Below, piece after piece: positions 19,336 through 46,724 of a stretch of 64,000 nucleotides of DNA. Made by a program: the position numbers and the translations under genes. This DNA comes from Escherichia coli. Lineage in GTDB: Bacteria; Pseudomonadota; Gammaproteobacteria; Enterobacterales; Enterobacteriaceae. The DNA is taken from the NCBI RefSeq assembly GCF_016026235.1, contig NZ_CP065613.1. One strand, written 5' to 3'. The notes beneath the pieces are model-generated. The model did not search any database. It saw only the letters and a program-made list of their open reading frames with translations, and was not told the DNA's origin. Positions within the stretch are counted from its first letter, which is position 1, and each line of letters starts with the position of its first letter.

Positions 19336-19360
19336 CAATACGGCACTCCGTTAACGCTGA

Positions 19361-20871
19361 TATGACTTTCCGTGTCAAACCGGAATCTCTAATTTTGACG
19401 ATTTTCTTTTTAGGTTTAATTCCCTGAGGGCGACGTAGCAGTAAATCCGACGGTGAATCACGCTGATATTCGCGGGTTGGATACCGCATTACAGAGGTCC
19501 GTCATATGAGCCTGCCACTTTCTTACGTCGCGAATCAGCTTTGTTCCGCCGTCGCCAAGCGCTAACGTGGGTTACTCTTGTACCGGGCTACGTCGCCTTC
19601 AGGGAACTGGTTATTCTCATTTTTTATTTGTGACATTGTGGTTGTTGTGCGACAGACATTGCTATTCGGCCCATATCCCAGATAAAACCCGCCAGCTCAC
19701 GTGCAACAGCAACAATTGTAATATTGACATTCTTTCCTTTGGCCTGAAGTTTTCGATACCTCTTACAAAGCCTGAGTTGAGCATCCCATGCTCTGTCAAT
19801 GACGGGGCGGGGTAAATTTTCCTGCCTTTTTGTATTGCCGGACTGATGCGTGCCGGATGACGGTAACTCCACGCTGCCTCGACCAATAGCTTTCTGGCAT
19901 AGCTGTTTCCGGCTTTGGTAATGCTGCCCTGATGTCTGCTTCCACCCGATGAATATTCTGATGGCGTGATACCAAACCATGACATCAGTTGTCGTGGATG
20001 TTCAAAACGGGTCAGATCACCCAGTTCAGAAATTAATCCAACCGCAGTAATAAACTGAATCCCTCGCATGGCTTGCAGCGCCTCTACTACCGGATACAGC
20101 CTCCATTCGGTAACGGCCTCCTTCAGGGCGGATTCCAGCCGTTCACATTGTGCCTGCCGGTCTTCTATTGTACGACGGTGTTCGTCAAAAGCTAATTGTC
20201 GCCAGGGACTTTCGAATGAGTATTTGCTGAGCCAGCGTCGGTGTGCAGGGCCCCAATCTGCTCGCCCGACATAATGGACCCCATGAACCAGAAGAAACGA
20301 TTTCAGACGTTGCCTTGCATGCCGTAAATCATCGCGGGCAGATGCCCATGCCCGGGCCAAATCCCGGAATGCCTCATCTTCAATGCCGGGTACGTAGACA
20401 GCAGAAAGATCTCCTGCACGCAGTGAACGCACAAGTCTGATGGCATCACGGCGATCGGTTTTAACCCGCTCCCCCGGTTTTTTCGGGATAAGTGAGGGGG
20501 CGCAGACCATGCAGTCAAAACCGGATTTCACCAGCCGACGATAAAGTCCATAACCACAGGGCCCCGCTTCATAAACGATACTGACCTGCGATGACTTTGA
20601 CCTGAGACGTTTACAAAGATTCTGAATATCAGTAGGTGATGTGCCAATTTTACCCATCAGTTCAACAGGTTCTGAATTGATAGCATAAGCGACAGTAATC
20701 GATTCTTTGTGAACATCTAACCCGACGTACAATGTGTTATTGTTGTTCATGCTGGCCTCCGTGGTGGAAATACCGGGGTGTAGCAACAGCTCACCCATGC
20801 GGCTCTGACAACGATGTTAACCCGCGTTAAATATCCCACGTTGGCCAGCATCTGTCTCACGGAAAGTCATA
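19361..20871 (-). mobile_element. IS110/IS1111-family insertion sequence (about 1.5 kb) bounded by 14-bp inverted repeats
   Basis: Perfect inverted repeat TATGACTTTCCGTG at 19361-19374 and its reverse complement CACGGAAAGTCATA at 20858-20871 enclose a single transposase gene plus about 290 bp of non-coding sequence on its 3' side. Confidence 0.6.
19662..20750 (-). CDS. IS110-family (DEDD-type) transposase/recombinase
   Basis: Product MNNNNTLYVGLDVHKESI... has the N-terminal DEDD/RuvC-like domain and the C-terminal transposase_20-type domain (…FGITPSEYSSGGSRHQGSITKAGNSYARKLLVEAAW…). Confidence 0.8.
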   Translation of the reverse strand: MNNNNTLYVGLDVHKESITVAYAINSEPVELMGKIGTSPTDIQNLCKRLRSKSSQVSIVYEAGPCGYGLYRRLVKSGFDCMVCAPSLIPKKPGERVKTDRRDAIRLVRSLRAGDLSAVYVPGIEDEAFRDLARAWASARDDLRHARQRLKSFLLVHGVHYVGRADWGPAHRRWLSKYSFESPWRQLAFDEHRRTIEDRQAQCERLESALKEAVTEWRLYPVVEALQAMRGIQFITAVGLISELGDLTRFEHPRQLMSWFGITPSEYSSGGSRHQGSITKAGNSYARKLLVEAAWSYRHPARISPAIQKGRKIYPAPSLTEHGMLNSGFVRGIENFRPKERMSILQLLLLHVSWRVLSGIWAE

Positions 20872-20988
20872 CTGCCTTACCTTTTCTCAGGCTATTTTTG
20901 CTTTTTTTTGCTTTTCCCCGCCACTTTATGGTGATTATCACATCAATATACATCGATAGATATTAACGTAACTGAAGTGAGGTGAAGC

Positions 20989-22203
20989 ATGAAATTTGAA
21001 CGCCATCATGAAATATTGAAACGACTCAGTAAATTCGGTTCTGTAAAAGTATCCGATCTGTCCAATAGCCTCAATGTAACGAAAGAAACTATTCGTTCAG
21101 ATCTTAATGAACTTGCCAGGCTTGGCTATCTGACTCGATGTCATGGCGGTGCTTTTATCGTCCTAGACTCGCTTGATACTATTGCGAAAAATGAAATCGC
21201 TTATGCGCTTGAAAATTATGATACAGCCCAGGGAATAAAAAAAGGCCACTCAACTATGAAAAGTCAAGTATGCGTTATTGGTTCGTTTAATGTTGATATC
21301 ATCAGTTATTTGCCGAGGCTTCCCACTATCGGAGAATCGCTTCTGGCAAGTAATTTTATATTTTCACCGGGGGGAAAAGGCTGTAACCAGGCGCTGGCAG
21401 CAAGCTTTGCCGATACTGATGTTTATTTCATAACAAAAGTAGGTACAGATCACTTTAGTGATTATGCGATCAACTTTATGAATTCGTCTAAGATTTATAA
21501 AAGTATAATTTATCAAACGAAAGAAACGCAAACCGGAACTGCCACGATCCTTGTTAATGAAGGTACTGGCGATAATGTTATTGCGATCTATCCCGGTGCC
21601 AACATGACAATGTCGTCCGATGAAATAACTATTCAGAAAGAAGCGATTATTAATTCTGATGTCATACTTCTGCAGCTCGAAACAAATTATACCGCTCTGC
21701 AACAAGCGATCACATTGGCGCAAAAAAACAGTATCCCGGTCATTATTAACCCGGCACCCTATAATGATATCGTCAACGAACTTATTCAGGATGTTGATTA
21801 TATCACCCCCAATGAAACAGAAGCTGGTTTACTGTCCGGCATAGACGTACACGATCTTGAATCAGCTAAACGAGCTGCAGAAGCTATCCACAATAAAGGG
21901 GTAAAAAACACGGTTATCACGCTCGGTAGCAAGGGCTCGCTCGCATTTGATGGCAAAAAATTCATTCATTCGCCAGCGTTTCCAGCGGTCGTTAAAAATA
22001 CGGCAGGAGCCGGGGATGCGTTTAACGGCTCTCTGGCATCAGGACTTGCGAAAGGAAAATCACTGGAATCAGCACTGTGTTATGCCAGCGCCTTTGCATC
22101 CCTAGCGGTGGAGACAAGCAATGCTTCCGACATGCCTGAACATGAATCTGTGATACATCGAATTCAGAGTATACATTATCAGCAAACTATTTTTACGCAT
22201 TAA
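20989..22203 (+). CDS. Fusion protein: N-terminal DeoR-type HTH domain plus PfkB/ribokinase-family carbohydrate kinase
   Basis: Single 404-codon ORF. Residues 1-60 look like a DeoR HTH (VKVSDLSNSLNVTKETIRSDLNELARLGYLTR). The remainder carries both PfkB signatures (GGKGCNQA and AGAGDAFNG). Confidence 0.7.
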   Translation: MKFERHHEILKRLSKFGSVKVSDLSNSLNVTKETIRSDLNELARLGYLTRCHGGAFIVLDSLDTIAKNEIAYALENYDTAQGIKKGHSTMKSQVCVIGSFNVDIISYLPRLPTIGESLLASNFIFSPGGKGCNQALAASFADTDVYFITKVGTDHFSDYAINFMNSSKIYKSIIYQTKETQTGTATILVNEGTGDNVIAIYPGANMTMSSDEITIQKEAIINSDVILLQLETNYTALQQAITLAQKNSIPVIINPAPYNDIVNELIQDVDYITPNETEAGLLSGIDVHDLESAKRAAEAIHNKGVKNTVITLGSKGSLAFDGKKFIHSPAFPAVVKNTAGAGDAFNGSLASGLAKGKSLESALCYASAFASLAVETSNASDMPEHESVIHRIQSIHYQQTIFTH

Positions 22204-22216
22204 GAAGGGACAGAGA

Positions 22217-22975
22217 ATGAATAACACCAAAAAATCACTAAAAGTGCTCTTTATTGGGGAATCCTGGCATATTCATATGATTCATTCAAAAGGATATGAC
22301 AGTTTTACCTCAAGTAAATATGAAGAAGGTGCGACCTGGTTACTCCAGTGTCTGAAAAATAGTCAGGTAGATGTCACCTATATGCCAGCACATACGGTAC
22401 AAATTGCCTTCCCTGAAGATGTGGCACAGTTAGAACAATATGATGCCATCGTTATTAGTGATATTGGTAGTAATACTTTCCTGCTACAAAATGATACTTT
22501 TTATCAGCTTCGCATAAAACCAAACGCTCTCGAACTGATTAAAGAATATGTGAATAACGGTGGTGGGTTATTGATGATTGGCGGCTATCTCTCATTCATG
22601 GGAATTGAAGCAAAAGCCAATTATAAAAATACAGTTCTGGCTGATGTGCTCCCGGTTACGATGTTAGATGGTGACGATCGTGTCGAAAAACCAGAGGGTG
22701 TTATTGCACAGCCATCACAACCTGAACATCCAGTTATTAAAGGGTTCTCTGAATATCCTTTTTTCCTAGGTTATAACCGGGCGATCGCTAAAGAAAATGC
22801 TGAGGTGGTATTAACAATAAACAACGCTCCATTACTGGTCTTTGGTAACTATCACAACGGGAAAATAGCCTGCTTTATGAGTGACTGTTCACCGCACTGG
22901 GGTACACAGCAGTTTATGTCCTGGCCGTTCTATACCGCGTTGTGGGTAAATATACTGACTCATATTGCAAGATAA
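22217..22975 (+). CDS. Hypothetical protein (possible class-I glutamine-amidotransferase-like / ThuA-like fold)
   Basis: 252-aa ORF 14 bp downstream of the kinase gene. Fold assignment comes only from the overall pattern (VLFIGESWH..., NGGGLLMIGGY) and is weak. Confidence 0.35.
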   Translation: MNNTKKSLKVLFIGESWHIHMIHSKGYDSFTSSKYEEGATWLLQCLKNSQVDVTYMPAHTVQIAFPEDVAQLEQYDAIVISDIGSNTFLLQNDTFYQLRIKPNALELIKEYVNNGGGLLMIGGYLSFMGIEAKANYKNTVLADVLPVTMLDGDDRVEKPEGVIAQPSQPEHPVIKGFSEYPFFLGYNRAIAKENAEVVLTINNAPLLVFGNYHNGKIACFMSDCSPHWGTQQFMSWPFYTALWVNILTHIAR

Positions 22976-23031
22976 TAATAATAATGGGGTAACTCCAGTT
23001 ACTCCATTTACTATAATAGAAGGATTGATGT

Positions 23032-23997
23032 ATGAAAAAGAATAAGTACTCAACTCCCTTATGGATGCTTGCCACGATTCTTGCGGGTATGCTCTCCCCT
23101 ATGCAATCAGCGGTGAATGGTCAATTAGGTCACTGGTTACAGGATGGTAATGCATGCGCAGTTATCTCCTTTGCCAGTGGTTTAGTCGTGATGTTTTTTA
23201 TTATTATGGCGCGAAAAGAAACCCGGCAACAATTTGCGGCAATTCCTTCTCTGATTAAAAACCGAAAAGTTCCTCTCTGGAACTGGTTTGCCGGTCTCTG
23301 TGGAGCGATGGTGGTATTTTCTGAAGGCGCATCAGCCAGCGCACTCGGGGTCGCAACGTTTCAAACCGCACTGATCTCCGCGCTATTGCTGTCTGGTTTA
23401 CTTTGCGATCGCTTTGGTATCGGTGTCGACGAGAAAAAATACTTTACCCCTTATCGCATCATCGGTGCATTATTTGCGGTTATTGCTACGATTTTTGTTG
23501 TGTCACCTCAGTGGCATTCTACCTCTTTCATCTTACTTGCCATTCTTCCGTTCTTAGCTGGTTTGCTTGCAGGATGGCAGCCCGCTGGAAATGCAAAAGT
23601 AGCTGAAGCTACGGGATCCATGCTGGTTTCAATCACCTAGAATTTCATCGTTGGATTTTGTGTTTTAGGCACAGCGCTAGCTATTCGTGTCGCATTAGGG
23701 CACGTCACTGTTCAATTACCAGATGTCTGGTGGATGTATCTTGGCGGCCCGCTTGGACTAATGTCTATCGGTTTAATGGCCATTTTGGTCAGAGGTCTGG
23801 GGTTACTGATGCTGGGGGTTGCTTCAACGGCGGGCCAGTTACTGGGATCAGTATTGATTGACGTATTAATTCCATCGCTGGGCAATAGCGTTTATCTGGT
23901 CACGATCATCGGAACACTGTTTGCACTGGTCGGTGCAATTGTTACCACTATTCCGGAATACAGAACCTCGAAAACAATGAAGAAAATGGAGGTATAA
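23032..23997 (+). pseudogene. DMT-superfamily (tandem DUF606 / YdcZ-like) inner-membrane transporter interrupted by an in-frame amber codon
   Basis: ORFs 23032-23640 and 23734-23997 are in the same frame. The intervening codons read on as membrane-protein sequence (...NFIVGFCVLGTALAIRVALGHVTVQLPDVWW-MYLGGPLGLMSIGL...) once TAG at 23638-23640 is read through. Confidence 0.55.
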
Positions 23998-23999
23998 TC

Positions 24000-25034
24000 A
24001 TGAAAGATTATCTACAAACTGTGACGGGCCCCGTCGCCCGTGAAGATATGGGGCTAACACTTCCTCATGAACATCTGTTCAACGATCTTTCCTCTGTTGT
24101 GGATGCTCCTTGCTATCCTTTTTCACAACGGCTTGTTGATAAAAAAGTCACGGCAGAAATCCAGTGGGCATTAAAACACGATCCTTATTGCTGCGCTGAT
24201 AATATGGACCGCAAACCTATTGAAGATGTGATCTTCGAAATTAATAACTTTATCTCGCTCGGTGGTCGCACCATTGTTGATGCCACAGGGTCTGAGTCTA
24301 TCGGACGAGATGCGCAGGCATTACGAGAAGTCGCATTAAAAACAGGTCTGAATATTGTTGCTTCCTCCGGTCCCTACCTGGAAAAATTTGAAAGCCAGAG
24401 AATTCATAAAACGGTTGATGAACTGGCGACAACGATCGATAAAGAATTGAATCAAGGGATTGGCGATACGGATATTCGTGCCGGAATGATCGGTGAAATA
24501 GGTGTTTCACCGACATTTACCGAAGCCGAGCATAACAGCTTGCGGGCTGCCTCGCTGGCACAGATTAACAATCCTCATGTGGCGATGAATATTCACATGC
24601 CGGGCTGGCTTCGTCGCGGTGATGAAGTACTCGACATTGTGTTAGGTGAAATGGGCGTCTCGCCAAATAAAGTCTCTCTCGCACACTCGGATCCGTCAGG
24701 AAAAGACGTGGCGTATCAGCGGAAAATGCTTGATAGAGGTGTCTGGCTGGAATTCGACATGATTGGCCTAGACATTACCTTCCCGAAAGAGGGAATAGCG
24801 CCAGGGGTGCAGGAGACTGCCGATGCCGTCGCTCATCTCATTGAGTTGGGATACGCCGATCAGCTTGTTCTCAGCCACGATGTCTTCCTTAAACAAATGT
24901 GGGCTAAAAATGGCGGTAATGGCTGGGGATTTGTTCCAGATGTTTTTCTGGCCTATCTGGCGGAGCGCGGCGTCGATAAAACGATCCTCAAAAAACTCTG
25001 TATCGATAATCCCGGACGATTATTGACCGCATAA
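24000..25034 (+). CDS. Phosphotriesterase-family (PTE/Php-like) metal-dependent hydrolase
   Basis: 344-aa product with the N-terminal metal-binding motif TLPHEHL and overall amidohydrolase/PTE layout. Confidence 0.75.
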   Translation: MKDYLQTVTGPVAREDMGLTLPHEHLFNDLSSVVDAPCYPFSQRLVDKKVTAEIQWALKHDPYCCADNMDRKPIEDVIFEINNFISLGGRTIVDATGSESIGRDAQALREVALKTGLNIVASSGPYLEKFESQRIHKTVDELATTIDKELNQGIGDTDIRAGMIGEIGVSPTFTEAEHNSLRAASLAQINNPHVAMNIHMPGWLRRGDEVLDIVLGEMGVSPNKVSLAHSDPSGKDVAYQRKMLDRGVWLEFDMIGLDITFPKEGIAPGVQETADAVAHLIELGYADQLVLSHDVFLKQMWAKNGGNGWGFVPDVFLAYLAERGVDKTILKKLCIDNPGRLLTA

Positions 25035-25043
25035 AACCATTAT

Positions 25044-25066
25044 CCCCCGGCACATTGCGCCGGGGG
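25044..25066. terminator. Bidirectional terminator between the PTE-like gene and the ggt remnant
   Basis: Perfect hairpin cccccggcacattgcgccggggg. Confidence 0.45.
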
Positions 25067-25073
25067 ATGTCAA

Positions 25074-25410
25074 TTAATACCCCGCCGTTAAATCATCCAC
25101 CAAGCGCGAGTCGGATGCGCCGTACAACTCACCATCCGACCCAACCATAATGCTTTGCGTGCTGCCCAACACCTCATTCAGCGCCACTTTCTGACCTTTT
25201 GCTTCCAGCAGCTTGAGCGTATCCGGACTAACCCCTTTTCAACACGCAGCTCGTCCGGCAACCACTGATGGTGGAAACGAGGCGTATTGGTCGCTTCGGC
25301 AACATTCATTCCACAATTGATGCTGTTCACCACCATTTGCAGCACGGTAGTGATGATCCAGCTACCGGTAACAAAGTGAGTACATAAAGGCCATACTGTC
25401 ACGAACAGTG
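25074..25410 (-). pseudogene. 3' remnant of a gamma-glutamyltranspeptidase paralogue, truncated by the ISL3 element
   Basis: Minus-strand translation gives the GGT C-terminus ...IITTVLQMVVNSINCGMNVAEATNTPRFHHQWLPDELRVEKG and ...ALNEVLGSTQSIMVGSDGELYGASDSRLVDDLTAGY with one frameshift. It ends at the ISL3 inverted repeat at 25411. Confidence 0.55.
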
Positions 25411-25685
25411 CAAAAGTGGCTCTTCCGCAACCTAGGTGAAGATTTTCATGCCAGTGGACTCATTACCCTCCGCCTAAGTAGTTCAAGTCCGGCTCGACCA
25501 TACATCTGGCGTATCAGCACCTTCAGGCGATTTACATGACCTTCGACAACACCAGTACTCCAGCGACTGCTGATTGCCTCACGTATAGCCGCAGCATCAG
25601 CTTCCATCCCCGCAGCTACGCACCGAAGTTCTGCTGAGCCGCTTTCGTGGACCCGAGTGAACCAGCTGCTTAGCTGTGATTTATT

Positions 25686-27063
25686 TTAGGTTTTCAGAAT
25701 ACGGTAGAACTCGAGTACCAGTTGCTGCGCTATTTTCAACTCCGGTTCTTTTTCACACATCAGACTAATAAATCGGAAAGCATAATTTTCTTCACCCCTG
25801 ATTATTCTCCGGGGCATCAACCAGCGGCTTACCCGGGACACTGAAGGAAGTCTTGCGGCAGTAGTAACCGGTGGGATCCAGCCTTTACGCCATTTGGCAA
25901 CAGCATCCCTGACGATGGTTTCACTGCCTGTAACCCCCCTGGCCACCATTTCCCGCCATATCCGGCCGGAGTTATAATTACCACATTCTCGTTGCTCTTT
26001 TAACCACTCCCTCCATGGGTCCAGAAGCCCTCGCTTTGGAGGCCTAGTTGACATTTCAGGGAATGTTCCTGAACCCACCCAGCGACTGACTGTCACTCGC
26101 GACAGGCCTGTAATACGGGATATTTCCCTGAAACTACATCCCTTGTTATGCAGGGCCATAACCTCTGTCCAACGCTGATGCCGTTTTTTGCGGGTGTGCT
26201 GTTTAAGGCGTTCCAGACGACGGAGCGATGCTACAGGCACAGATATTTCTGGCTCAGGTGATTTCTTCAGTGATAACTCTCTGACAACAAGACGTATCAG
26301 AGGCATATGTCTGTACATCATTCGTTCAGGCTCATCACCAATATTTTTTAGCAGGTGCCATCGATAGGCCACCTGTCTGGCCTGAGGTGCACCTTCACGT
26401 GCTGCTGTCGCATAGACTCCACTGCGATCACGCGATACAACCTGTATTTCCGGACCTTTTCTGAACCAGGTCGCCAGCGTACGCTGATCACGGCCGGGAA
26501 GCAGGACCAGGGGGCGGTGAGTATCAAGATTGAATATTAACGTACCGTAACGGTGGCCCCAATGCCACGCCCACTCATCAATACCGACATGAGGCGCGCC
26601 TGACTGTTTCGTCTCCGGGGTATTGATAAGCCTGCGAAGAAGAGTATCAGCACTGCAACGGAGACCCGCTGCCGTTGCAGCCCGTTTTCCAGCCTCACCT
26701 CCAGCTATTAATCCCAGTTGACGTTGTTAATTTTGTAACGCCTGTGAAGACTGCTGGTGTGAACTGGCGAAGGGAGCAAGCGACTCGGCAAAAATTTTAC
26801 GTGACAAGCCGGGTTACGGCAGTACCAGTGGCGGACGGAAAATACAAGCCATAGCGTCTGCCCTGAGCAGGGTAGATGCTGTATCCGGCGCCGACGACAA
26901 CTATGAACAGAGTCGCTACGCTTAAAGCATTCAGGACATTGTGCTGTTTTGCGTTTTCCGTGGAGATGGAGGGTTATACCGTCAGAGCTAATAATTTGTC
27001 GACTGCATCGCCATCCGCAAGGTAACTTTAGAAGTGTCTTAAGAGAGTGCATTGCGTTGCCCA
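25686..27063 (-). pseudogene. ISL3-family transposase, frameshifted; its start region is separated from the body by the IS2 insertion
   Basis: N-terminal zf-ISL3-like region (...CPECFKRSDSVHSCRRRRIQHLP...RHWYCRNPAC), a central part in another frame, and a C-terminal part (…YRWHLLKNIGDE…). The first two codons (ATG GGC) lie beyond the IS2, at 28395-28400 on the minus strand. Confidence 0.6.
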
Positions 27064-27155
27064 TTAGACTGGCCCCCTGAATCTCCAGACAACCAATATC
27101 ACTTAAATAAGTGATAGTCTTAATACTAGTTTTTAGACTAGTCATTGGAGAGCAG

Positions 27156-27521
27156 ATGATTGATGTCTTAGGACCGGAGAAACGCAGACGGCGTACTACA
27201 CAGGAAAAGATCGCTATTGTTCAGCAGAGTTTTGAACCGGGAATGACGGTCTCCCTTGTTGCCCGGCAACACGGTGTGGCAGCCAGCCAGTTATTTCTCT
27301 GGCGCAAGCAATACCAGGAGGGAAGTCTTACTGCTGTGGCCGCAGGAGAGCAGGTCGTTCCTGCCTCTGAACTTGCTGCTGCCATGAAGCAGATTAAAGA
27401 ACTCCAGCGCCTGCTCGGCAAAAAAACGATGGAAAATGAACTCCTTAAAGAAGCCGTTGAATACGGGCGTGCAAAAAAGTGGATAGCGCACGCGCCCTTA
27501 TTGCCCGGGGATGGGGAGTAA
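27156..27521 (+). CDS. insC: IS2 OrfA (InsC)
   Basis: [56 protein letters not shown]... recognised as InsC. Confidence 0.85.
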
Positions 27522-28384
27522 GCTTAGTCAGCCGTTGTCTCCGGGTGTCGCGTGCGCAGTTGCACGTAATTCTCAGACGAACCGATAACTGGAAAGATGG
27601 TCGCCGCAGCCGTCACTCAGATGATACGGATGTGCTTCTCCGTATACACCATGTTATCGGAGAGCTGCCCACGTATGGTTATCGTCGGGTATGGGCGCTG
27701 CTTCGCAGACAGGCCGAACTTGATGGTATGCCTGCGATCAATGCCAAACGTGTTTACCGGATCATGCGCCAGAATGCGCTGTTGCTTGAGCGAAAAACCG
27801 CTGTACCGCCATCGAAACGGGCACATACTGGCAAAGTGGCCGTGAAAGAAAGCAATCAACGATGGTGCTCTGACGGGTTCGAGTTCCGCTGTGATAACGG
27901 AGAAAAACTGCGAGTCACGTTCGCGCTGGACTGCTGTGACCGTGAGGCACTGCACTGGGCAGTCACTACGGGCGGCTTCGACAGTGAAACAGTACAGGAC
28001 GTAATGCTGGGAGCGGTGGAACGCCGCTTCGGCAACGAGCTTCCGGCGTCTCCAGTAGAGTGGCTGACGGATAATGGTTCATGCTACCGGGCTAATGAAA
28101 CACGGCAGTTTGCCCGGATGTTGGGGCTTGAACCGAAGAACACGGCGGTGCGGAGTCCGGAGAGTAACGGCATAGCAGAGAGCTTCGTGAAAACGATAAA
28201 GCGTGACTACATCAGTATCATGCCTAAACCAGACGGGTTAACGGCAGCAAAGAACCTTGCAGAGGCGTTCGAGCATTATAACGAATGGCATCCGCATAGT
28301 GCACTGGGTTATCGCTCGCCACGGGAATATCTGCGGCAGCAGGCCAGTAATGGGTTAAGTGATAACAGGTGTCTGGAAATATAG
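27479..28384 (+). CDS. insD: IS2 OrfB (InsD, DDE transposase)
   Basis: 301-aa product overlapping insC in the -1 frame (programmed frameshift arrangement of IS3-family elements). Confidence 0.85.
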
Positions 28385-28518
28385 GGGCAAATCCACCCAT
28401 AACTTAAATCAGCTTAGATTGCGTATTCCGCTCTATTCGATCACGGATTGGCATCGAAGTCCGATCAGCGATTCGCATACATTCGATCAACCGGGAACTT
28501 AACTTTTTCTACCGCTTT

Positions 28519-29274
28519 TTAACTCGTTTTTTCGCTGCTTTCCACTGTCGGGGGATTTTTCCTCAGGGACTCTCCCTGAAGGACCACTCTGTGTGAGTTA
28601 TGTACCAGTCTGTCCAGGATGGCATCTGCTGTTGTTGGGATTTCCATCAGACCATGCCATTTATCTACCGGGAACTGGCTTACCACTATCGTGCTGCTTT
28701 GTCCGTAACGATCCTCTATGATCTCCAGAAGGTCATTACACTGGGCGTTACTTAACTGTTCCAGCCCCAGATCGTCCAGGATTAGAACCTGTATTTTTTG
28801 CAACTGTTTCAGATATTTCAGCCAGCTGCCATCAACACGTCCCTGAGCCAGCTGTTCCAGTAATCGCCCGGTTCTACTGTACCGGACGCTGTATTTCTGT
28901 CGACATGCCTGTTCGCCCAGCGCATTGGCTATCCAGCTCTTACCGCATCCTGTCGGACCGGTTATCAGCAGGTTTTTCCTGTGGATTATGTAGTGACCGT
29001 TCAGCAGCTCCCTCATCTGTTCAGCCCGCAGACCTCTTGAGGCCGGATAACGCAGCCCTTCCGGTGTTGCCTGGTATTTCAGGCCGGCATTTTTTCTCAA
29101 CCGTGCCACACGACTGTTTTCTCTGCTCAGAAGCTCGTCATCAACCAGCAGTGTCAGCCTTTCCTCGAAAGACAGCTCGTCATAGGTCTGAGGCGTTTCC
29201 CGCTGCCGTATCAGGCTCCCGGCCATCGCCGGGAGTTTCAGTTGGGTCAGTTTGTTTAACAGGTTATCACTCAT
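28519..29274 (-). CDS. istB: IS21-family helper ATPase IstB
   Basis: Walker A GPTGCGKS and IstB-like layout; start MSDNLLNKL. Confidence 0.8.
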   Translation of the reverse strand: MSDNLLNKLTQLKLPAMAGSLIRQRETPQTYDELSFEERLTLLVDDELLSRENSRVARLRKNAGLKYQATPEGLRYPASRGLRAEQMRELLNGHYIIHRKNLLITGPTGCGKSWIANALGEQACRQKYSVRYSRTGRLLEQLAQGRVDGSWLKYLKQLQKIQVLILDDLGLEQLSNAQCNDLLEIIEDRYGQSSTIVVSQFPVDKWHGLMEIPTTADAILDRLVHNSHRVVLQGESLRKNPPTVESSEKTS

Positions 29275-29290
29275 ACTGTTGTTCCTTTTG

Positions 29291-30826
29291 TCAGTGGTAG
29301 TAGCCCGGGCCACGCAGGTTTTCATGCTCTGAAGCATATGCCGGATGTTGTTCGCCCTGGCGGGATAATGGAAGCTCAAGGTTTTCCCGATGGTGACGCA
29401 GCAGATTGTCGATAAAGCGTCTGTCCGGGGCGTTATAGTGCAGGGCAACGTAACAGGCCTTTTCCAGCCGTTCCGGGCCGTATTTTTTCTGAAGAGCCAG
29501 CAGCCCCAGGACTGCACGGTAAGCCAGTTCCGGATGGGGTTTTGCCTTCAGCATGGATTCAACCACCCGGCCAGTGGACGGGCCTGTACGTTTTCCCTGC
29601 CCGATAAGGCGTTCCGGTGTCCATGTCCCGTGCCGCCGGTGGCGCTCTGGCATGTGAAGCGGATTGGTTGTGTGTTTATATTCATGTGTGCTGCGCGGAT
29701 GTTGCGCCACACACTGCCCCTTGTGCCAGAGTTGTACCACAGACTGCCCCGCCTTCAGTGACAGACGCTGACCGACCAGTTCGTGTGGAACGGAGTACCA
29801 GTGACGGGCATATTCAACGTGATAGTCAGGGCCAACCTTCACGGCTTTGTATTCCGTGTATTCATAAGGTGCCAGAGGCAGCGGAGAGAGTGCTGGCGCA
29901 TCCAGCATGCGGAAGCGTTCTGCACGGGTTTGATTGCCGTACCCCTTCATTGGCCGGTTATTCATGTCCATCAGTAACTCCCGAAGGCGCGCATTCAGCG
30001 CCCTGAGCGTGTGGAAGGTTTCATTACGGATGCGGGCAAGAAGCCATCGTTCGACGATGAGGACGCCGTTTTCTGCTTTTGGTTTATCTTTAGGTTTGCG
30101 CGGGCGGGCCGGGATAATAACCGTGCCATAGTGCTCAGCCAGCGCCTGATAACTGTCGTTGATGACAGGCTCATAGCGATCGGCTTTTTTGACTGCACTT
30201 TTGAGATTATCGGGGATGAGCAGCTTCGGCACGCCGCCCAGGAAGGTCAGGCAACGGCTGTGGGCATTTAACCATGACATCATGTCCTGACCTTCGCACG
30301 CTTCAACGTAGGTATAGTTGGATGCCTCCATCACGGCCACGAAGATTGCCACGCGGCGTATCTCTCCGGTGTCCGGATTAATAACAGGAACCGTAGGACC
30401 GCAGAAGTCGATAAAGAGCTTTTCGCCGGCACGATGCTCCTGGCGCATGGAGAGGCGTCGCGTTTTTTTCCACTCCCGGTAGCAACGGCAGAAGTGCGAG
30501 TATCCCATCGCTTTGTCACCCGCCTGTGCCTTGTATTCCATCCACAACAGCTGGCGCGTCACGCCCGGTTTTCTCATTTCCGTATCGAAGTACAGCATGT
30601 CAGGCATAACAAGCTCTGACGCAGAGGTGTCTTTGGGCGGGTAAATGAGTTTCTCCAGCGTGTCATGGGATATATCAGCAGGTAATGGCCATGACAGAGA
30701 AGAGGCTTTGAAGCGTGCAAGAACCTCAAAAACGGTTGAGGCGCTGATGTGTAACGTCAGTCCGATACAACGGTTAGTCAGCTTCTGGTCGAACTTGAGC
30801 TGAAGGATCTTAAAACAGGTTTCCAT
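29291..30826 (-). CDS. istA: IS21-family transposase IstA
   Basis: N-terminal HTH followed by a DDE domain (…LFIDFCGPTVPVINPDTGEIRRVAIFVAVMEASNYTYVEA…); start chosen at METCFKILQ. Confidence 0.8.
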   Translation of the reverse strand: METCFKILQLKFDQKLTNRCIGLTLHISASTVFEVLARFKASSLSWPLPADISHDTLEKLIYPPKDTSASELVMPDMLYFDTEMRKPGVTRQLLWMEYKAQAGDKAMGYSHFCRCYREWKKTRRLSMRQEHRAGEKLFIDFCGPTVPVINPDTGEIRRVAIFVAVMEASNYTYVEACEGQDMMSWLNAHSRCLTFLGGVPKLLIPDNLKSAVKKADRYEPVINDSYQALAEHYGTVIIPARPRKPKDKPKAENGVLIVERWLLARIRNETFHTLRALNARLRELLMDMNNRPMKGYGNQTRAERFRMLDAPALSPLPLAPYEYTEYKAVKVGPDYHVEYARHWYSVPHELVGQRLSLKAGQSVVQLWHKGQCVAQHPRSTHEYKHTTNPLHMPERHRRHGTWTPERLIGQGKRTGPSTGRVVESMLKAKPHPELAYRAVLGLLALQKKYGPERLEKACYVALHYNAPDRRFIDNLLRHHRENLELPLSRQGEQHPAYASEHENLRGPGYYH

Positions 30827-31289
30827 AGTGCTCCTGGATTTTCTCTTTCTGGACATTGCCGTCTCCACTGGTTTAAACACGGCAATGAAGACTGTGGTGA
30901 AAAGAGTTAATTCCCGGAGTGACTGGCAGGATGCCAATCAATGATCGGAAGCATGCCAAATCGTGATCGATTTAGATGCCAAACCATGATCGATTCAGAT
31001 GCCATTTTGCACTTAGATCCTTGTTCACCAGAAAGTTTCATCCATTTTCTTCCACCCAAGTTGCGGAAGAACCACTTTTCATCCGTCGTTGACAGCTGTG
31101 AAGTATGCGGGAGAAAAAGCGAATATCTAACTGTAATAACTCAGGCCGGTACGAGTACTCGGGACGTCTACAATCATTCAGGGCAAAGTGCTAAAATTTC
31201 TCTATCCCGGGATGCCCCTACCAACGCAGCACTCCAGGAGATATCATTACAGCTCTGCAACTGATTTCCGCGACTGAACCGCTCAGTTC

Positions 31290-31694
31290 CTATCCTTCCA
31301 GTTGCCCTCCTGCAGCCCCCCTCTCCCTGCTGTATACCCCGGTACCACAACGCGGGCAGCACTTTTCCCCCTCATAATCTTCGTCACACATCACACAAAA
31401 CCACTTTCTCACCTTCACCGTATAATCCGGAACCGTCATGCCCTGCAGATGCAAACGACGGGCCTCTTTCTCTGCCGGGTCAAGCCAGGTGCATCGCAGC
31501 AGGATTTTCGCAGCAACAGTCATCTGGTCATGTTCAAACCACGGCGGTTGTCCGTCATTGCCCCGCTTAAGTGTTAACGGACAACCACAGGACACACAGC
31601 ACAAAACGTCCTGTCGGTTGTTCTTCGCGGCTTCTTTCGCCGTAACAAAATGGCCTTTGCTGTCATTCGCCATATAGCAGTTCAGAATTCGCAT
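31290..31694 (-). CDS. Hypothetical Cys-rich (putative zinc-binding) protein, paralogue A
   Basis: 134-aa ORF with CxxC...PWFEH...WFCxxC...CCPRC arrangement; paralogous to the ORF at 32852-33256. Confidence 0.5.
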   Translation of the reverse strand: MRILNCYMANDSKGHFVTAKEAAKNNRQDVLCCVSCGCPLTLKRGNDGQPPWFEHDQMTVAAKILLRCTWLDPAEKEARRLHLQGMTVPDYTVKVRKWFCVMCDEDYEGEKCCPRCGTGVYSRERGAAGGQLEG

Positions 31695-31879
31695 ATCTCC
31701 TCCTTGTATCTTGACAATTGGTTAAAATAACTGTGATTAGATTTGGCAAGGTGTATGCAGCCCGATCCCTCAAGGGGTTCATAGCCCGTAGCTCAGCGAA
31801 TGGCGCATACACTGAGCCACTCATCAGAAACCCGAACAGTTGTCAGTACGCCATAACGCATTTGCAAGGATGGGTAATC

Positions 31880-32848
<969 letters not shown>

Positions 32849-32851: not shown

Positions 32852-33256
32852 TTACGTGCAAGACAGTTGCTGAGCTGTCCGGGGAAGACTGAATCCTCCG
32901 GTCTGGCAGTGTGTGCAGTACCACTCCCCATAATAATCGTGGTGACATTGTCTGCAGTGCCAGCTGGCTTTACGCACCACGGGTAAGGCATCCGGTACGA
33001 ATTGCTGCAGACGTTTAATCAACTGTATTTCTCTGCGCTCCGGCCTGACATAAGGGCACTGTTGACCGTGCTCTGTCAGCCTGTCGTCAGTGTGTTCAAA
33101 CCAAGGAAGTTCAGTGTCGTATTGCGGATGGTATCTGAGTGCACTGCCACACAAGTGGCAGGTGTAGTTAGCATAAGGTGCGGCCTGTGCTGTACGGGCG
33201 CCCGTCAGACGTCCGTTGCCATCAAGAGCGATAAAGGATTTTGCGTACATAGTCAT
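32852..33256 (-). CDS. Hypothetical Cys-rich (putative zinc-binding) protein, paralogue B
   Basis: 134-aa ORF with CHLC...PWFEH...WHCRQC...CTHC; same cysteine architecture as paralogue A. Confidence 0.5.
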   Translation of the reverse strand: MTMYAKSFIALDGNGRLTGARTAQAAPYANYTCHLCGSALRYHPQYDTELPWFEHTDDRLTEHGQQCPYVRPERREIQLIKRLQQFVPDALPVVRKASWHCRQCHHDYYGEWYCTHCQTGGFSLPRTAQQLSCT

Positions 33257-38905: not shown

Positions 38906-40199
38906 CTGAGGGATCCCCAGAAAATTTAGTAAACCATTATCATATTGGTATACCGTTGCTGTAGAACTTTCAGCCCTGCGTCAAGTGACAGTGTGTTTAG
39001 TATGAGTGGAGAATGTCGAATCACATTCTCCGCCAGTTTTAATAACGAGATGACTCGCCTGTGCTTCACTGTATTTGCCTGATATTTATGATGTATCCCT
39101 TTGTTTTCCAGGCTGAAACCGCTTAACCACATAATGATACTGGCTAATGTTGCGATCAGACTCAATACCGTGACCCGCCCGGATGAATGACTGGCACCAA
39201 ACCGTAATCCAAATCCCCAGCGAGGATTTTTTTCATCCCTGAAATTTTGCTCAATTTGCATTCTACGGCTGTATAATTTCATTACCTGTTTTGGCGAGAA
39301 CTCAGTACTGTTTGTGAAAATAAACCATGGTGATTTCCCGGCAGTACGAGCTTTAGCCGTCACCGATGGTCTGGTTGCTCTTTCCTTCGAGCGTTTAAAT
39401 CAACGACCTTTAGGCTTACTTTTATAAAGATAAAAATGCCCTTCATGTTGTGCATTTTTATCTCGACCCAGCAGGCCTTCACCTAAATAAATTGCTGTCG
39501 TTGATGCTTTTGTGCCTGAGTCCGACACCTTTTCCCAGCCATTACCAACATTGTAATAATGATTGCCCAGTACCCGGCAAATATAGGTCCAGCCACGGGA
39601 GCGGAGCTGTTGGAACCATCGCCCCTGAAAACCGGCATCTGTAATAACAATGACATCAGTCCCGGGGGAAAAGCACTCAGCAAGCGATTCCAGAAAACGC
39701 TCATGTACATCTGCATTCGCTGTCTGTGATGATGGAACGACACAACTCATCAACGGTAAAGAACGCCCGTCACATGCCAGGCTTGCCCGCAAAAGCTGAA
39801 AACGAGAGGCATGATAAGCACTCCAGTCAATGAGTATCACAACACGAGACATTCCCCGCGTAATCTTTTGGGTAATTCGCTGAAAAATGGTGGAAACCTC
39901 ATTTTGCAAATGTCGATTCCCCAACAGTCGATCCACCCGCTTTATTTTGTTTTTAACTGATGCCGTACCGGTTAAATGACGCCCGATACTGGTAAGTGTG
40001 AGGGAAGCGCCATTTATTACAGCATTAGTTGCGTCAATCAGTGATTTTTGACGGTAAAGATGCAAAGGGGCCAGTATGTTGTTAAGGAAATTTTGGCATA
40101 ATGAACGTGCAGGCATAGTGGTGATCTCCTTGAAATTGTTAGCACAATCAATTAGATCACATCTCACTATGCCTGTCTTGTTTTCTGGGGATTCCTCAG
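38906..40199 (-). mobile_element. IS10-like IS4-family insertion sequence inside yeeP
   Basis: Terminal inverted repeats CTGAGGGATCCCCAGAAAA (38906-38924) and CTGAGGAATCCCCAGAAAA (reverse complement of 40181-40199). Flanking direct repeat GGGAGGTCAC at 38896-38905 and 40200-40209. Confidence 0.7.
38926..40116 (-). pseudogene. IS4-family (IS10-like) DDE transposase, in two frames
   Basis: Segments resemble the IS10 transposase (NKIKRVDRLLGNRHL; VIVITDAGFQGRWF; YSRRMQIEQNFRDEKNPRWGFGLRF) but are split between ORFs 39400-40116 and 38926-39363. Confidence 0.7.
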
Positions 40200-41009
40200 G
40201 GGAGGTCACCCCGGTCAGTGATGTTCACGCCGGCACCCGGGAAGTGCGGCGCTTCCGTCTGAGTGGCCACGGTCACAGCATGATTATCACTGACCTGCCC
40301 GGGGTGGGCGAGAGCCGGGACAGGGATGCAGAGTATGAAGCCCTGTACCGTGACATTCTGCCTGAACTTGACCTGGTACTGTGGCTGATTAAAGCCGATG
40401 ACCGTGCCCTGTCTGTGGATGAGTATTTCTGGCGACACATCCTGCACCGGGGACATCAGCAGGTGCTGTTTGTGGTGACGCAGGCCGACAAAACGGAGCC
40501 CTGCCATGAATGGGATATGGCCGGCATTCAGCCTTCTCCCGCACAGGCACAGAACATTCGTGAGAAAACAGATGCGGTATTCCGGCTGTTCCGGCCCGTA
40601 CATCCGGTTGTGGCCGTATCGGCCTGCACCGGCTGGGAACTGGATACGCTGGTCAGTGCGCTCATGACAGCGCTTCCCGACCATGCCGCCAGTCCCCTGA
40701 TGACCCGCCTGCAGGACGAGCTGCGCACGGAATCTGTCCGGTCTCAGGCCCGTGAACAGTTTACCGGTGCGGTGGACCGGATATTTGACACGGCGGAGAG
40801 CGTCTGTATTGCCTCTGTTGCACGCACGGTTCTGCGTGCCGTCCGTGACTCGGTGGTCTCTGTTGCCCGCGCTGTATGGAACTGGATTTTCTTCTGAACA
40901 GTCTGCCAGGGGAAATGCCTGATTACATTGCGTTAACCAACTGAAAACATGATACACCCCCCTCATATCCACCTCTTTCTCTTGCGTGACTGCCTTGCTG
41001 TTAATAGAA

Positions 41010-41060: not shown

Positions 41061-43251
41061 GGTTAATGGCCTGCGAAAAGGCAGCTGAATCTCTTCATCA
41101 TGCAGAACGGAATTGCACACAACGGACTGATACTTCTCTGGCGGATGAGAGAGGGGAAGCATTTATGTCCGGGAAAAACCACTTTATCTGACCATGCTGT
41201 TTTGTACCTGCCGGTATCCACATTTGTGGGTACCGGCTTTTTTATTCACCCTCTGTAAGGAAAAGCTGATGAAACGACATCTGAACACCAGCTACAGGCT
41301 GGTATGGAATCACATTACGGGCACCCTGGTGGTGGCTTCCGAACTGGCGCGCTCACGGGGAAAACGCACCGGTGTGGCGGTTGCGCTGTCTCTTGCTGCT
41401 GTCACGTCAGTCCCGGTACTGGCTGCTGACACGGTCGTACAGGCGGGAGAAACCGTGAGCGGCGGAACACTGACAAATCATGACAACCAGATTGTCTTCG
41501 GTACGGCCAACGGAATGACCATCAGTACCGGTCTGGAGTATGGGCCGGATAACGAGGCCAATACCGGCGGACAATGGATACAAAATGGCGGTATCGCCAA
41601 CAACACTACTGTCACCGGTGGTGGTCTTCAGAGAGTGAATGCTGGAGGAAGCGTTTCAGACACGGTTATCAGTGCCGGAGGCGGACAGAGCCTTCAGGGG
41701 CAGGCAGTGAACACCACTCTGAACGGCGGTGAGCAGTGGGTACATGAAGGCGGGATTGCAACGGTTACCGTCATTAATGAGAAGGGCTGGCAGGCCGTCA
41801 AATCCGGCGCAATGGCAACCGACACGGTTGTGAATACCGGCGCGGAAGGGGGACCGGATGCAGAAAATGGTGATACCGGGCAGACCGTCTACGGAGATGC
41901 CGTACGCACCACCATCAATAAAAATGGTCGTCAGATTGTGGCTGCTGAAGGAACGGCAAATACCACTGTGGTTTATGCCGGCGGCGACCAGACTGTACAT
42001 GGTCACGCACTGGATACCACGCTGAATGGGGGGTACCAGTATGTGCACAACGGCGGTACGGCGTCTGGCACTGTTGTAAACAGTGACGGCTGGCAGATTA
42101 TCAAGGAAGGTGGTCTGGCGGATTTCACCACCGTTAACCAGAAAGGCAAACTGCAGGTGAACGCCGGTGGTACCGCCACACATGTCACCCTGAAACAGGG
42201 TGGAGCACTGGTTACCAGTACTGCGGCAACGGTTCTTGGCAGCAACCGTTTGGGCAATTTCACGGTGGAAAACGGTAAGGCTGACGGCGTTGTTCTGGAG
42301 TCCGGCGGTCGCCTAGATGTACTGGAAGGCCATTCAGCGCAGAAAACACGGGTGGATGACGGCGGAACCCTGGCAGTGTCTGCCGGTGGTAAGGCAACAG
42401 GTGTCACCATGACATCCGGTGGTGCCCTGATTGCAGACAGTGGTGCCACTGTTGAGGGGACCAATGCCAGCGGTAAGTTCAGTATTGATGGCATATCCGG
42501 TCAGGCCAGCGGCCTGCTGCTGGAAAATGGCGGCAGCTTTACGGTTAATGCCGGGGGACAGGCCAGCAACACCACTGTCGGACATCGTGGAACACTGATG
42601 CTGGCTGCCGGGGGAAGTCTGAGTGGCAGAACACAGCTCAGTAAAGGCGCCAGCATGGTACTGAATGGTGATGTGGTCAGTACCGGCGATATTGTTAACG
42701 CAGGGGAGATTTACTTTGACAATCAGACAACACCGGATGCCGTACTGAGCCGTGCTGTTGCAAAAGGCAACGCCCCGGTAACGTTCCATAAACTGACAAC
42801 CAGTAACCTCACCGGTCAGGGTGGCACCATCAATATGCGTGTTCGCCTTGATGGCAGCAATGCCTCTGACCAGCTGGTGATTAATGGTGGTCAGGCAACC
42901 GGCAAAACCTGGCTTGCGTTTACAAATGTCGGAAACAGCAACCTCGGGGTGGCAACCACCGGACAGGGTATCCGGGTTGTGGATGCACAGAATGGCGCCA
43001 CCACAGAAGAAGGTGCGTTTGCCCTGAGTCGCCCGCTTCAGGCCGGCGCCTTTAACTACACCCTGAACCGTGACAGCGATGAAGACTGGTACCTGCGCAG
43101 TGAAAATGCTTATCGTGCTGAAGTCCCCCTGTATACATCCATGTTGACACAGGCAATGGACTATGATGCGTATTACCGTGAAGGAGATCGGTGAGTAACA
43201 TCGATGGAGATCGGTTCGTGTCACTTTCACAGAACCGTTTTTAAATTACCT

Positions 43252-44001
43252 TCACTGATCTCCTTCGGTCAACGGAGATTGTATTTTCCGCATTGATTCT
43301 CCTTTAAGTTCAATCTTGATACTGCCATGAACCAGTCGATCTAGGATGGCATCCGCATGTGTGGAGTCTCCGATCATTTTGTACCAGTTTTCCACCGGCA
43401 ACTGGCTCACTACGATGATTGAGCCTCGTTGGTACATCAGATCCACTATTTCCAGCAGGTCGCTACGCTGTTCTGATGAGAGAGGTTCCAGCCCCCAGTC
43501 ATCCAGAAGCAGCAGATCGCTATTATTCAGCCTAGTCAAAAGTTTGCTGTATCTTCCATCAGCATGCCCCTGATAGCACTGTTCCATCAGCGCTTTAAGG
43601 CGATAATAGTAGACCTTGTATCCCTGTCGGCAGGCATTATGACCAAGTGCACATGCCAGGAACGTTTTACCGCTGCCGGTGGCCCCGGTCAGTAAAATAT
43701 TTTGTTTCAGGGTTAACCAGTTTCCCTGACTGAGTGAACGGATGAGGGCCCTGTCCAGCCCTCTATTGTTACGATAATCCAGCTTTGATAACTCAGCATT
43801 AAGTCTGAACCGTGCATGTTTGATCAGACGCTCTGCCTTCCTGTTTTCACGGCAGGTTAGTTCTTCTGCTGTCAGTAATGACAGGCGTTCTTCGAAGCCC
43901 AGCTCCTGGTATGTGCCCGGCTGAGCAAGTTGCTTTTTAAGCGCATCACGGAAGCCGGTGAGTTTAAGTGCGGTCAGTTGTTCGTAAAGATGATTCATCA
44001 T
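43252..44001 (-). CDS. istB: IS21-family helper ATPase IstB
   Basis: Walker A GATGSGKT; 249 aa. Confidence 0.8.
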   Translation of the reverse strand: MMNHLYEQLTALKLTGFRDALKKQLAQPGTYQELGFEERLSLLTAEELTCRENRKAERLIKHARFRLNAELSKLDYRNNRGLDRALIRSLSQGNWLTLKQNILLTGATGSGKTFLACALGHNACRQGYKVYYYRLKALMEQCYQGHADGRYSKLLTRLNNSDLLLLDDWGLEPLSSEQRSDLLEIVDLMYQRGSIIVVSQLPVENWYKMIGDSTHADAILDRLVHGSIKIELKGESMRKIQSPLTEGDQ

Positions 44002-44012
44002 TGGATCCCGTA

Positions 44013-45533: not shown

Positions 45534-46724
45534 AGAAATTGGAACTGTTGGCATAGGTATCCTTTACCGGAATGGCAAAAGATACAGATCAACACACCTG
45601 TGAAGTTCCAATAACATTGATGGAGATCACTGAATAACAAAATGAGTCAAAAGTGATCTCCATCGATGTTATTCAGCGATCTGTTCAAATGTTATTACCC
45701 GATCTCGATGGAAGTTATTGAGTGATCTCCTTTCATGAAAATACGCACTATGACCGGATTCTGGCAGGCTCCCGCAGCCATCAGACCGGTGTAAACGGTG
45801 AAAATAACAGCGTCCGTCTCAGCATTCAGGGCGGTCATCTCGGTCACGATAACAACGGCGGTATTGCCCGTGGAGCCACGCCGGAAAGCAGCGGCAGCTA
45901 TGGCTTCGTCCGTCTGGAGGGTGACCTGCTGAGAACAGAGGTTGCCGGTATGTCTCTGACGACAGGGGTGTATGGTGCCGCAGGCCATTCTTCCGTTGAT
46001 GTTAAGGATGATGACGGTTCCCGCGCCGGCACGGTCCGGGATGATGCCGGCAGCCTGGGCGGATACCTGAATCTGACACACACGTCCTCCGGCCTGTGGG
46101 CTGACATTGTGGCACAGGGAACCCGCCACAGCATGAAAGCGTCATCGGACAATAACGACTTCCGCGCCCGGGGCTGGGGCTGGCTGGGCTCACTGGAAAC
46201 CGGTCTGCCCTTCAGTATCACTGACAACCTGATGCTGGAGCCACAACTGCAGTACACCTGGCAGGGGCTCTCCCTGGATGACGGCCAGGATAACGCCGGT
46301 TATGTGAAGTTCGGGCATGGCAGTACACAACATGTGCGTGCCGGTTTCCGTCTGGGCAGCCACAACGATATGACCTTTGGTGAAGGCACCTCATCCCGTG
46401 ACACCCTGCGCGACAGTACAAAACACGGTGTGAGTGAACTGCCTGTGAACTGGTGGGTACAGCCTTCTGTTATCCGCACTTTCAGCTCCCGGGGTGACAT
46501 GAGCATGGGTACAGCCGCCGCCGGCAGTAACATGACGTTCTCACCGTCCCGGAATGGCACGTCACTGGACCTGCAGGCCGGACTGGAAGCCCGTGTCCGG
46601 GAAAATATCACCCTGGGCGTTCAGGCCGGTTATGCCCACAGCGTCAGCGGCAGCAGCGCTGAAGGTTATAACGGTCAGGCCACGCTGAATGTGACTTTCT
46701 GATAATCAGGTCACTCTCCTTCAG

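Follow-up and report, generated by a model that had tools for sequence, protein, structure and literature searches.

The part of the window considered here contains the end of a ggt gene, an inactive element of the ISL3 family and, within the latter, two further insertion sequences with intact reading frames. The window is the whole stretch of DNA analysed and has a length of 64 kb. The features are listed below in order of position.

25074-25395, minus strand: 3' fragment of ggt, the last ~104 codons (about residues 477-580) and the stop codon, abutting the ISL3 terminus.
25396-27064, minus strand: ISEc38-like ISL3 relic, comprising the transposase-distal terminus and the whole transposase pseudogene, start codon at 27064-27062.
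27060-27064, no strand: left copy of the IS2 target duplication, CCCAT, found as a single copy at the empty sites of NCTC9008 and MB46.
27065-28395, plus strand: IS2 (IS3 family), 1331 bp, with intact orfA (121 aa) and orfB (301 aa), identified with Pfam and NCBIfam.
28396-28400, no strand: right copy of the IS2 target duplication, CCCAT, identified from the sequence of the flanks.
28401-28419, minus strand: ISL3 leader between the two later insertions, 19 bp, including the left CTTAGAT.
28420-31011, minus strand: IS21-family element (RefSeq label "IS21-like element ISSso4 family"), 2592 bp, with intact istA and istB.
29274-28519, minus strand: istB, 251 aa, intact.
30826-29291, minus strand: istA, 511 aa, intact.
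31012-31095, minus strand: remainder of the ISL3 leader and the transposase-proximal terminus, with the right CTTAGAT at 31012-31018 followed by 77 bp.

All features that an earlier note on this sequence had described at 25074-31080 are present, with small shifts in coordinates. A chance origin is excluded, since the repeats, the target duplications and the empty sites are all exact. Rfam and tRNA scans of 25074-31080 gave no matches inside the interval. The names ISEc38 and ISSso4 are used here as RefSeq labels of close relatives, not as matches to ISfinder reference entries.

The ISL3 relic is delimited by an imperfect inverted repeat of 43 nt (25396-25438 and 31053-31095, 77% complementary), and the matches to independent ISEc38 copies end at 25396/25397 and 31094/31095. 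The inverted repeats that had been placed at 25411-25443 and 31046-31080 are real, but the element actually extends to 25396 and 31095, about 15 bp further out, and an end at 31080 cuts the element short by 15 bp. With both insertions and one copy of each duplication removed, the relic has a length of 1765 bp and is colinear throughout with intact ISEc38, at 94.9% nucleotide identity and with a single 1-bp indel. This colinearity shows that the repeats at 25411 and 31080 belong to one element and not to two different ones. The relic shares with ISEc38 the 43-nt imperfect terminal repeats with the GGCTCTTCCGCAAC motif and the 539-codon transposase frame. An element taken to start at GGCTCTTCC (25418/31073) would be shorter than the mobile unit found here.

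The terminal repeats of the relic enclose a single DDE_Tnp_ISL3 transposase gene, here a pseudogene; the transposase of the intact ISEc38 relative matches NF033550 (374 bits, NCBIfam) and PF01610 (Pfam). The frameshift reported for the transposase is a 1-bp deletion after 26803, and there is an additional in-frame stop near 25683. In all strains for which the RefSeq annotation was read, the relic is marked as having a frameshift and an internal stop. Unlike ISEc38, the relic is inactivated, lacks a flanking duplication and is split by two insertions, and unlike the mobile ISEc38 it is a fixed chromosomal copy. It is present in uninterrupted form in MB46 and thousands of other genomes. ISEc38-like copies in general are common on IncF plasmids and chromosomes, in up to 13 places per genome. 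In one published paper ISEc38 is named only in a table of strains, without lengths or ends.

A target duplication of 8 bp is expected for the ISL3 family. There is none around the relic, which is bordered by AGGCCATA and CTGTGAAG. If the inner definition of the ends is used, the flanks are inverted and not direct, and no 8-bp duplication is found under either definition. Four other ISEc38 copies, all in rearranged contexts, also had no 8-bp duplication. We read the missing duplication as a secondary loss of one flank and not as evidence against membership of the ISL3 family.

The IS21-family element has exactly the span and the flanking CTTAGAT given in the earlier note. The 7-bp duplication is found at 28413-28419 and 31012-31018 and as a single copy in MB46, where the empty site reads ...GCCCATAACTTAAATCAGCTTAGATCCTTG..., and many independent copies elsewhere start or stop matching at exactly 28420 and 31011. 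The ends are of the TG...CA type (TGCGTATTCC... and ...CATTTTGCA) with repeated CGATCA...GGCAT motifs at both, istA (a transposase with HTH and DDE domains) is followed by istB (an AAA+ helper ATPase), and the duplication relative to the empty site is within the 4-8 bp of the family. Profile matches of istA and istB are to NF033546 (287 bits), NF038214 (251 bits) and Pfam IstB_IS21 (E=1e-59). The insertion does lie in the 5' leader of ISL3, within the 96-bp leader and 19 bp upstream of the transposase ATG. ISSso4-type elements have the same istA (511 aa) and istB (251 aa) in the same order, the same TG...CA ends and repeated terminal motifs, and copies that are 96-99.8% identical with identical ends occur on many E. 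coli plasmids and chromosomes. The target duplication is 7 bp here and 6 bp in two other ISSso4-type copies examined.

IS2 is oriented opposite to the ISL3 transposase gene. Its span had been given as 27064-28395, of which the end is right and the start is corrected to 27065; as for the other two elements, the boundaries are defined by independent copies in other contexts. The element is about 1.3 kb long, with imperfect terminal inverted repeats (27074-27106 and 28355-28387), overlapping orfA and orfB and a 5-bp duplication relative to the empty site. A Pfam HTH_Tnp_1 domain is found in orfA and rve/rve_3 (DDE) in orfB, and the latter matches the NCBIfam model NF006918 "IS2 transposase TnpB" over its whole length (704 bits, 1-301/301). 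Read on the other strand, the duplicated CCCAT is ATGGG, the start codon of the ISL3 transposase followed by GG, and IS2 has therefore landed on the first codons of that gene, as had been proposed. The length, the imperfect repeats, the 5-bp duplication, the sizes of orfA and orfB and the HTH and rve domains are those of IS2 of E. coli. A copy elsewhere in MB46, annotated by RefSeq with a programmed frameshift, is 99.9% identical. The only difference from known E. coli IS2 is the insertion site, which is new relative to 5,426 complete genomes.

The frequencies were obtained from a sample of 5,426 complete E. coli genomes. The junction between the ggt fragment and ISL3 is found in 2778 of these; about half of the complete E. 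coli genomes thus share the truncation of ggt, which is old. The IS21 insertion at the ISL3 leader site is found in six genomes, none of which has IS2 there, and the IS2 junction at 27064/27065 in none of the 5,426. One of the six, NCTC9008, was checked base by base and has the same CTTAGAT duplication and an IS21 copy that is 99.8% identical. NCTC9008 is without IS2 and MB46 is without both insertions, both show the exact unfilled target, and the RefSeq annotation of both gives the same features. Two-piece matches to the IS2 junction were obtained in two strains; in the one examined, EC21Z-147, IS2 lies 86 bp beyond the end of another ISEc38-like copy, and this is not the same event.

The ggt fragment against the left end of ISL3 is confirmed by Pfam and tblastn. 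It matches PF01019 G_glu_transpept (E=2.5e-20) over profile positions 420-509 of 512, and residues 477-580 of K-12 Ggt align at 25387-25077 with one frameshift; the six-frame translation shows one frameshift and a small deletion. A full-length Ggt proenzyme of ~580 aa, including the catalytic Thr with which the small subunit begins, is not encoded, and the sequence is a gene fragment and no functional member of the family. No other ggt sequence was found by tblastn with K-12 Ggt in the whole window. Given this and the lack of an 8-bp duplication, it is a fair reading that the remainder of ggt was lost after the ISL3 insertion; the earlier note had deduced an adjacent deletion from the absent far-side duplication.

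The fragment lies next to a cluster of four genes, encoding a PfkB-family kinase, a glutamine amidotransferase, a DMT-family transporter and a phosphotriesterase (PTE). It is convergent with the PTE gene and ~39 bp from its stop, the same spacing and orientation as in Citrobacter and Salmonella diarizonae. In three Citrobacter species the cluster is followed by an intact, full-length convergent ggt and then by ORFs that agree with yhhA and the ugp genes in size and order; in S. diarizonae the stretch examined ends inside ggt. Positions 20894-25367 of the window form one continuous blastn alignment to these genomes, unbroken from the cluster into ggt. A search with the 5' part of Citrobacter ggt gave 5433 places in 5425 genomes, in essence the resident ggt alone, and no intact second ggt in complete E. 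coli genomes.

The surroundings resemble the CP4-44 type of cryptic prophage or genomic island in E. coli (cobU to his region), a likeness by neighbours: three tRNA-Asn genes, cobUST, an Ag43-like autotransporter gene, yeeS, yeeT, YeeU/CbtA-family toxin-antitoxin genes and the his leader at 62 kb are shared. The island differs from that type in the extra segment with the kinase, amidotransferase, transporter, phosphotriesterase and truncated ggt genes and in having many more insertion sequences. It is a mosaic in which segment borders are marked by IS remnants. On the right flank of ISL3, related islands without ISL3 share homology only from position 31306 of the window onward and carry other insertion sequences upstream of it, and thus do not give the pre-insertion state. 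No genome with the pre-deletion state of ggt and ISL3 was found among the complete E. coli genomes and related islands.

Taken together, successive mobile-element events are very probably recorded in layers at this locus, which lies in a CP4-44-like genomic island downstream of cobUST, on a chromosome of the E. coli type. Every component is from an already known family, and the structure is ordinary mobile-element wear and tear. The term nested pile-up, which had been used for it, is apt in that two later insertions lie inside the ISL3 relic, but IS2 and the IS21-family element are side by side, 24 bp apart, and neither is within the other. The count of at least three successive transpositions and a deletion is supported: the IS21 and IS2 insertions are seen directly, and the ISL3 insertion and the ggt loss are inferred.

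The following order of events is proposed. A segment with the four-gene cluster and a convergent ggt would have entered the island; Citrobacter species retain this arrangement with a full-length ggt. An ISEc38-like ISL3 element would then have inserted into ggt near codon 475, and later the 5' 82% of ggt and one ISL3 flank would have been lost. This loss probably came about by a deletion next to the IS or by recombination of two copies of the element, either of which would leave ISL3 without an 8-bp duplication and joined to unrelated island DNA. The ISL3 transposase has decayed, by the 1-bp deletion and the nonsense codon. An ISSso4-type IS21 element has entered the leader with a 7-bp duplication, and IS2 has entered at the transposase start codon with a 5-bp duplication. 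We infer that IS2 was the last of the insertions from which strains carry which insertion, because neither element lies inside the other and the structure gives no relative order.

The reverse order, with IS2 first and the IS21 element second, is equally compatible with two adjoining elements. It would, however, leave the six genomes that have the IS21 element without IS2 to be explained, among them the nearly identical copy in NCTC9008 with the same CTTAGAT, and no genome has IS2 here, with or without the IS21 element. If instead the IS21 insertions in the six genomes were independent events at the same site, the element would have to have hit one identical target repeatedly, which is unlikely because copies elsewhere use different targets with 6-bp duplications. 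Both variants are thus very improbable. The origin of the ggt tail also has an alternative, namely that part of the resident E. coli ggt was duplicated locally, as the word paralogue in the earlier note might suggest. The fragment is 91.5% identical in nucleotides to the 3' end of K-12 ggt and only ~80-81% to ggt of Citrobacter or Salmonella. Its conserved position beside the PTE gene and the unbroken alignment from the cluster argue against such a duplication, and the 8.5% divergence from the resident ggt fits an Escherichia-like donor. A local duplication is therefore regarded as unlikely; the fragment is taken as the remnant of a ggt that came in together with the linked cluster.

The ISL3 relic may itself be a recombinant. 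Two ISEc38-like copies, one in ggt and the other elsewhere in the island or on another replicon, may have recombined into a hybrid with unrelated flanks, the DNA between the copies being deleted or exchanged, with no transposase-mediated adjacent deletion. The lack of a target duplication on either definition of the ends, the abundance of ISEc38-like copies and the mosaic island with IS remnants at its segment borders are all consistent with this. Nothing separates a hybrid from an adjacent deletion; just 96 bp of the element lie beyond the later insertions, too short for a pattern of divergence. The hybrid is kept as a possible, tentative reading beside the insertion of a single element followed by loss of one flank.

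An effect of the pile-up on host genes is probably lacking, because all the disrupted sequence was already dead. Judged by their intact reading frames, the IS2 and IS21 copies might still be able to transpose or to give rise to rearrangements. Beyond annotation the significance is small: the ggt and ISL3 transposase calls at the locus are pseudogene debris, and the successive insertions form a clean, dated set of markers by which strains can be typed and events in the island put in order, the IS2 insertion being so far confined to this sequence. Other insertion sequences might land preferentially in the leader and at the start of the inactive ISEc38 transposase gene, a suggestion that we consider improbable and that is based on two unrelated IS families only 24 bp from each other. 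If true, it would mean target choice for a DNA feature near IS ends, beyond the tolerance of insertions in dead DNA. Counted toward the same suggestion, other strains have IS2 at several further positions in the island.

The region 24000-32500 was surveyed by ORF listing, repeat finding and direct reading of junctions, and contains three insertion sequences and one gene fragment. The earlier observation is right and unremarkable. Each of the three elements is of a well-known family, and the same features can already be read in the RefSeq annotation of sister strains. An ISEc38-like ISL3-family relic is the host element, next to ggt', the 3' fragment of a gamma-glutamyltranspeptidase gene. Corrections to the earlier note concern the ISL3 termini, the side-by-side position of the two inserted elements, the co-transfer of ggt' and the age of the truncation. 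The features within and beside the relic are:

25074-25395, minus strand: ggt', last ~104 residues of gamma-glutamyltranspeptidase, with one frameshift
27065-28395: IS2, 1331 bp, start TAGACTGGCC, end GGGGCAAATCCA
28420-31011: IS21-family element, 2592 bp, ends TGCGTATTCC... and ...CATTTTGCA

Once IS2, the IS21-family element and one of the two copies of each duplication are taken out, a host element of 1765 bp is left. It can be aligned over its whole length with intact ISEc38 copies; identity is 94.9%, and the differences are 90 mismatches and a single 1-bp deletion, which follows window position 26803. In RefSeq the intact copies bear the label 'ISL3-like element ISEc38 family transposase' and encode 539 aa. 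Near codon 87 the 1-bp deletion puts the gene out of frame, in agreement with the frameshifted transposase described earlier, and further into the gene a Gln codon is changed to a stop. In each of the four strains whose RefSeq annotation was read, the gene carries the remark 'frameshifted; internal stop'; the ISL3 element was therefore already dead when these lineages diverged, and the pile-up is located in already non-functional DNA. The ISL3 inverted repeat is 43 nt long (25396-25438 and 31053-31095), and in ISEc38 copies from several unrelated contexts the similarity ends at 25396/25397 and 31094/31095. The true termini are 25396 and 31095; the repeats placed at 25411 and 31080 in the earlier note do belong to one element, whose ends lie about 15 bp further out.

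Within the 539-aa ISEc38 transposase (positions 650-2269 of L003, a locus with an intact copy), residues ~303-398 form a helix-turn-helix segment with a match to the N-terminus of IS21-family IstA (NF033546, E=1.6e-16); this segment divides the match to the ISL3 DDE domain into two stretches. The corresponding ORF in the window is 25686-26372.

IS2 has two intact genes, orfA (121 aa) and orfB (301 aa); orfB gives a full-length match to the NCBIfam IS2 TnpB model (704 bits), and the Pfam domains are HTH_Tnp_1 and rve. CCCAT is found on both flanks (27060-27064 and 28396-28400). The start codon annotated in the intact ISL3 copy maps to 27064-27062 on the minus strand, so that CCCAT is ATGGG on the coding strand. 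IS2 thus landed on the transposase start codon itself, as had been proposed for the first codons, with the left boundary moved from 27064 to 27065. The complete genome NCTC9008 carries the ISL3 and IS21-family elements at this locus without IS2; it has a single CCCAT and reads ...GTTGCCCATAACTTAAATCAGCTTAGAT followed directly by TGCGT....

The IS21-family element has repeated CGATCA...GGCAT motifs at both ends and intact istA (511 aa) and istB (251 aa) genes on the minus strand. It lies 19 bp upstream of the ISL3 transposase start, within the 96-bp leader, flanked by CTTAGAT at 28413-28419 and 31012-31018. In independent copies on plasmids and chromosomes, where IstB is labelled 'IS21-like element ISSso4 family' in RefSeq, the similarity starts and stops exactly at 28420 and 31011; two of these copies have 6-bp duplications by base-level reading. 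Complete E. coli genomes contain chromosomal loci almost identical to this region. One of these genomes, MB46, lacks both insertions, has one CCCAT and one CTTAGAT, and reads ...GTTGCCCATAACTTAAATCAGCTTAGATCCTTGTTC.... The boundaries, flanks and leader position first reported for the IS21-family element hold. The single-copy motifs at the empty sites of NCTC9008 and MB46 show that both insertions are simple transpositions, with target duplications of 5 bp and 7 bp. Two hits in the ISL3 element stand, but IS2 and the IS21-family element are side by side rather than nested.

The ggt' fragment extends right to the ISL3 terminus, and no other ggt sequence was found in the 64-kb window by tblastn with K-12 Ggt. 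The ISL3 element is bordered by the 8-bp sequences AGGCCATA and CTGTGAAG; their comparison gave no target duplication, as the earlier note had observed, and it follows that one of the flanks was replaced after the insertion. In related islands without the ISL3 element the similarity begins only at 31306, and no complete E. coli genome was found to have the ggt 5' part twice. The loss of ggt probably took place through an adjacent deletion or through recombination between two element copies, both of which fit the evidence.

Among 5,426 complete E. coli genomes, the ggt'-ISL3 junction is present in about 2,778 (96.8-100% identity), the IS21-family element at this leader site in six and IS2 at the start-codon site in none. 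The junction, together with the right-hand one, is also carried by the IncF plasmid pARG01. The most economical order is ISL3 insertion with loss of ggt, decay of the ISL3 transposase, IS21-family insertion and finally IS2 insertion; IS21 is put before IS2 because of strain distribution, not structure. At least three successive transpositions plus a deletion, as originally counted, agree with this series.

Comparators were sought in species-representative genomes with the neighbouring phosphotriesterase protein, and came from Citrobacter species and from Salmonella enterica subsp. diarizonae. Each of the four comparator loci has the same cluster, with genes for a PfkB-family kinase, a glutamine amidotransferase, a DMT-family transporter and the phosphotriesterase, and a convergent ggt lies ~44 bp beyond it. 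This ggt is full length in the three Citrobacter loci, and in S. diarizonae the stretch fetched ends inside it. In the one Citrobacter locus whose ORFs were listed, those beyond ggt correspond in size and order to yhhA and the ugp genes. Window 20894-25367 aligns with the comparators as one block (~76% identity). What had been called a truncated paralogue is indeed a 3' fragment, its origin now revised to co-transfer with the neighbouring genes. Its identity, 91.5% to the K-12 ggt 3' end versus ~80-81% to the Citrobacter and Salmonella genes, points to a donor nearer Escherichia than those genera. No Escherichia-like donor of the segment was found in the collections searched, in which the donor lineage is unsampled. 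The linked phosphotriesterase gene (24000-25034) is only ~75% identical to the closest orthologues found (Citrobacter, S. diarizonae).

The window is colinear with NCTC9008 from tRNA-Asn and cobUST to the his leader, and the island is of CP4-44 type, with an Ag43-like autotransporter gene and YeeU/CbtA-family toxin-antitoxin genes. IS2 is found at several other sites of the same island in other strains, and the island gains IS2 insertions repeatedly. In loci L001, L002, L087, L088 and L089, which are this island in other E. coli strains, IS2 or IS2-like copies occupy differing positions: some lie within the amidotransferase or the phosphotriesterase gene, others upstream of the DMT-family transporter gene or close to the Hha-like gene.

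Two insertions are absent from NCTC9008. In one of ~1.5 kb (19358-20876) the IS110-family transposase gene is intact (19662-20798, minus strand, 378 aa; NF033542, 246 bits), and one of ~1.3 kb (38906-40196) has an IS4-family transposase split into two minus-strand ORFs (39400-40209 and 38926-39363). Two zinc-ribbon genes (31290-31694 and 32852-33256) enclose an IS110-family transposase pseudogene (31718-32848) that is broken into ORFs of 213 and 140 aa; on pARG01 the two genes are adjacent without the pseudogene, which is thus another island insertion. An ISEc12-type IS21-family element (43164-45747) in the Ag43-like autotransporter gene is ~550 bp from its NCTC9008 position, an offset that suggests either a separate insertion event or local movement.
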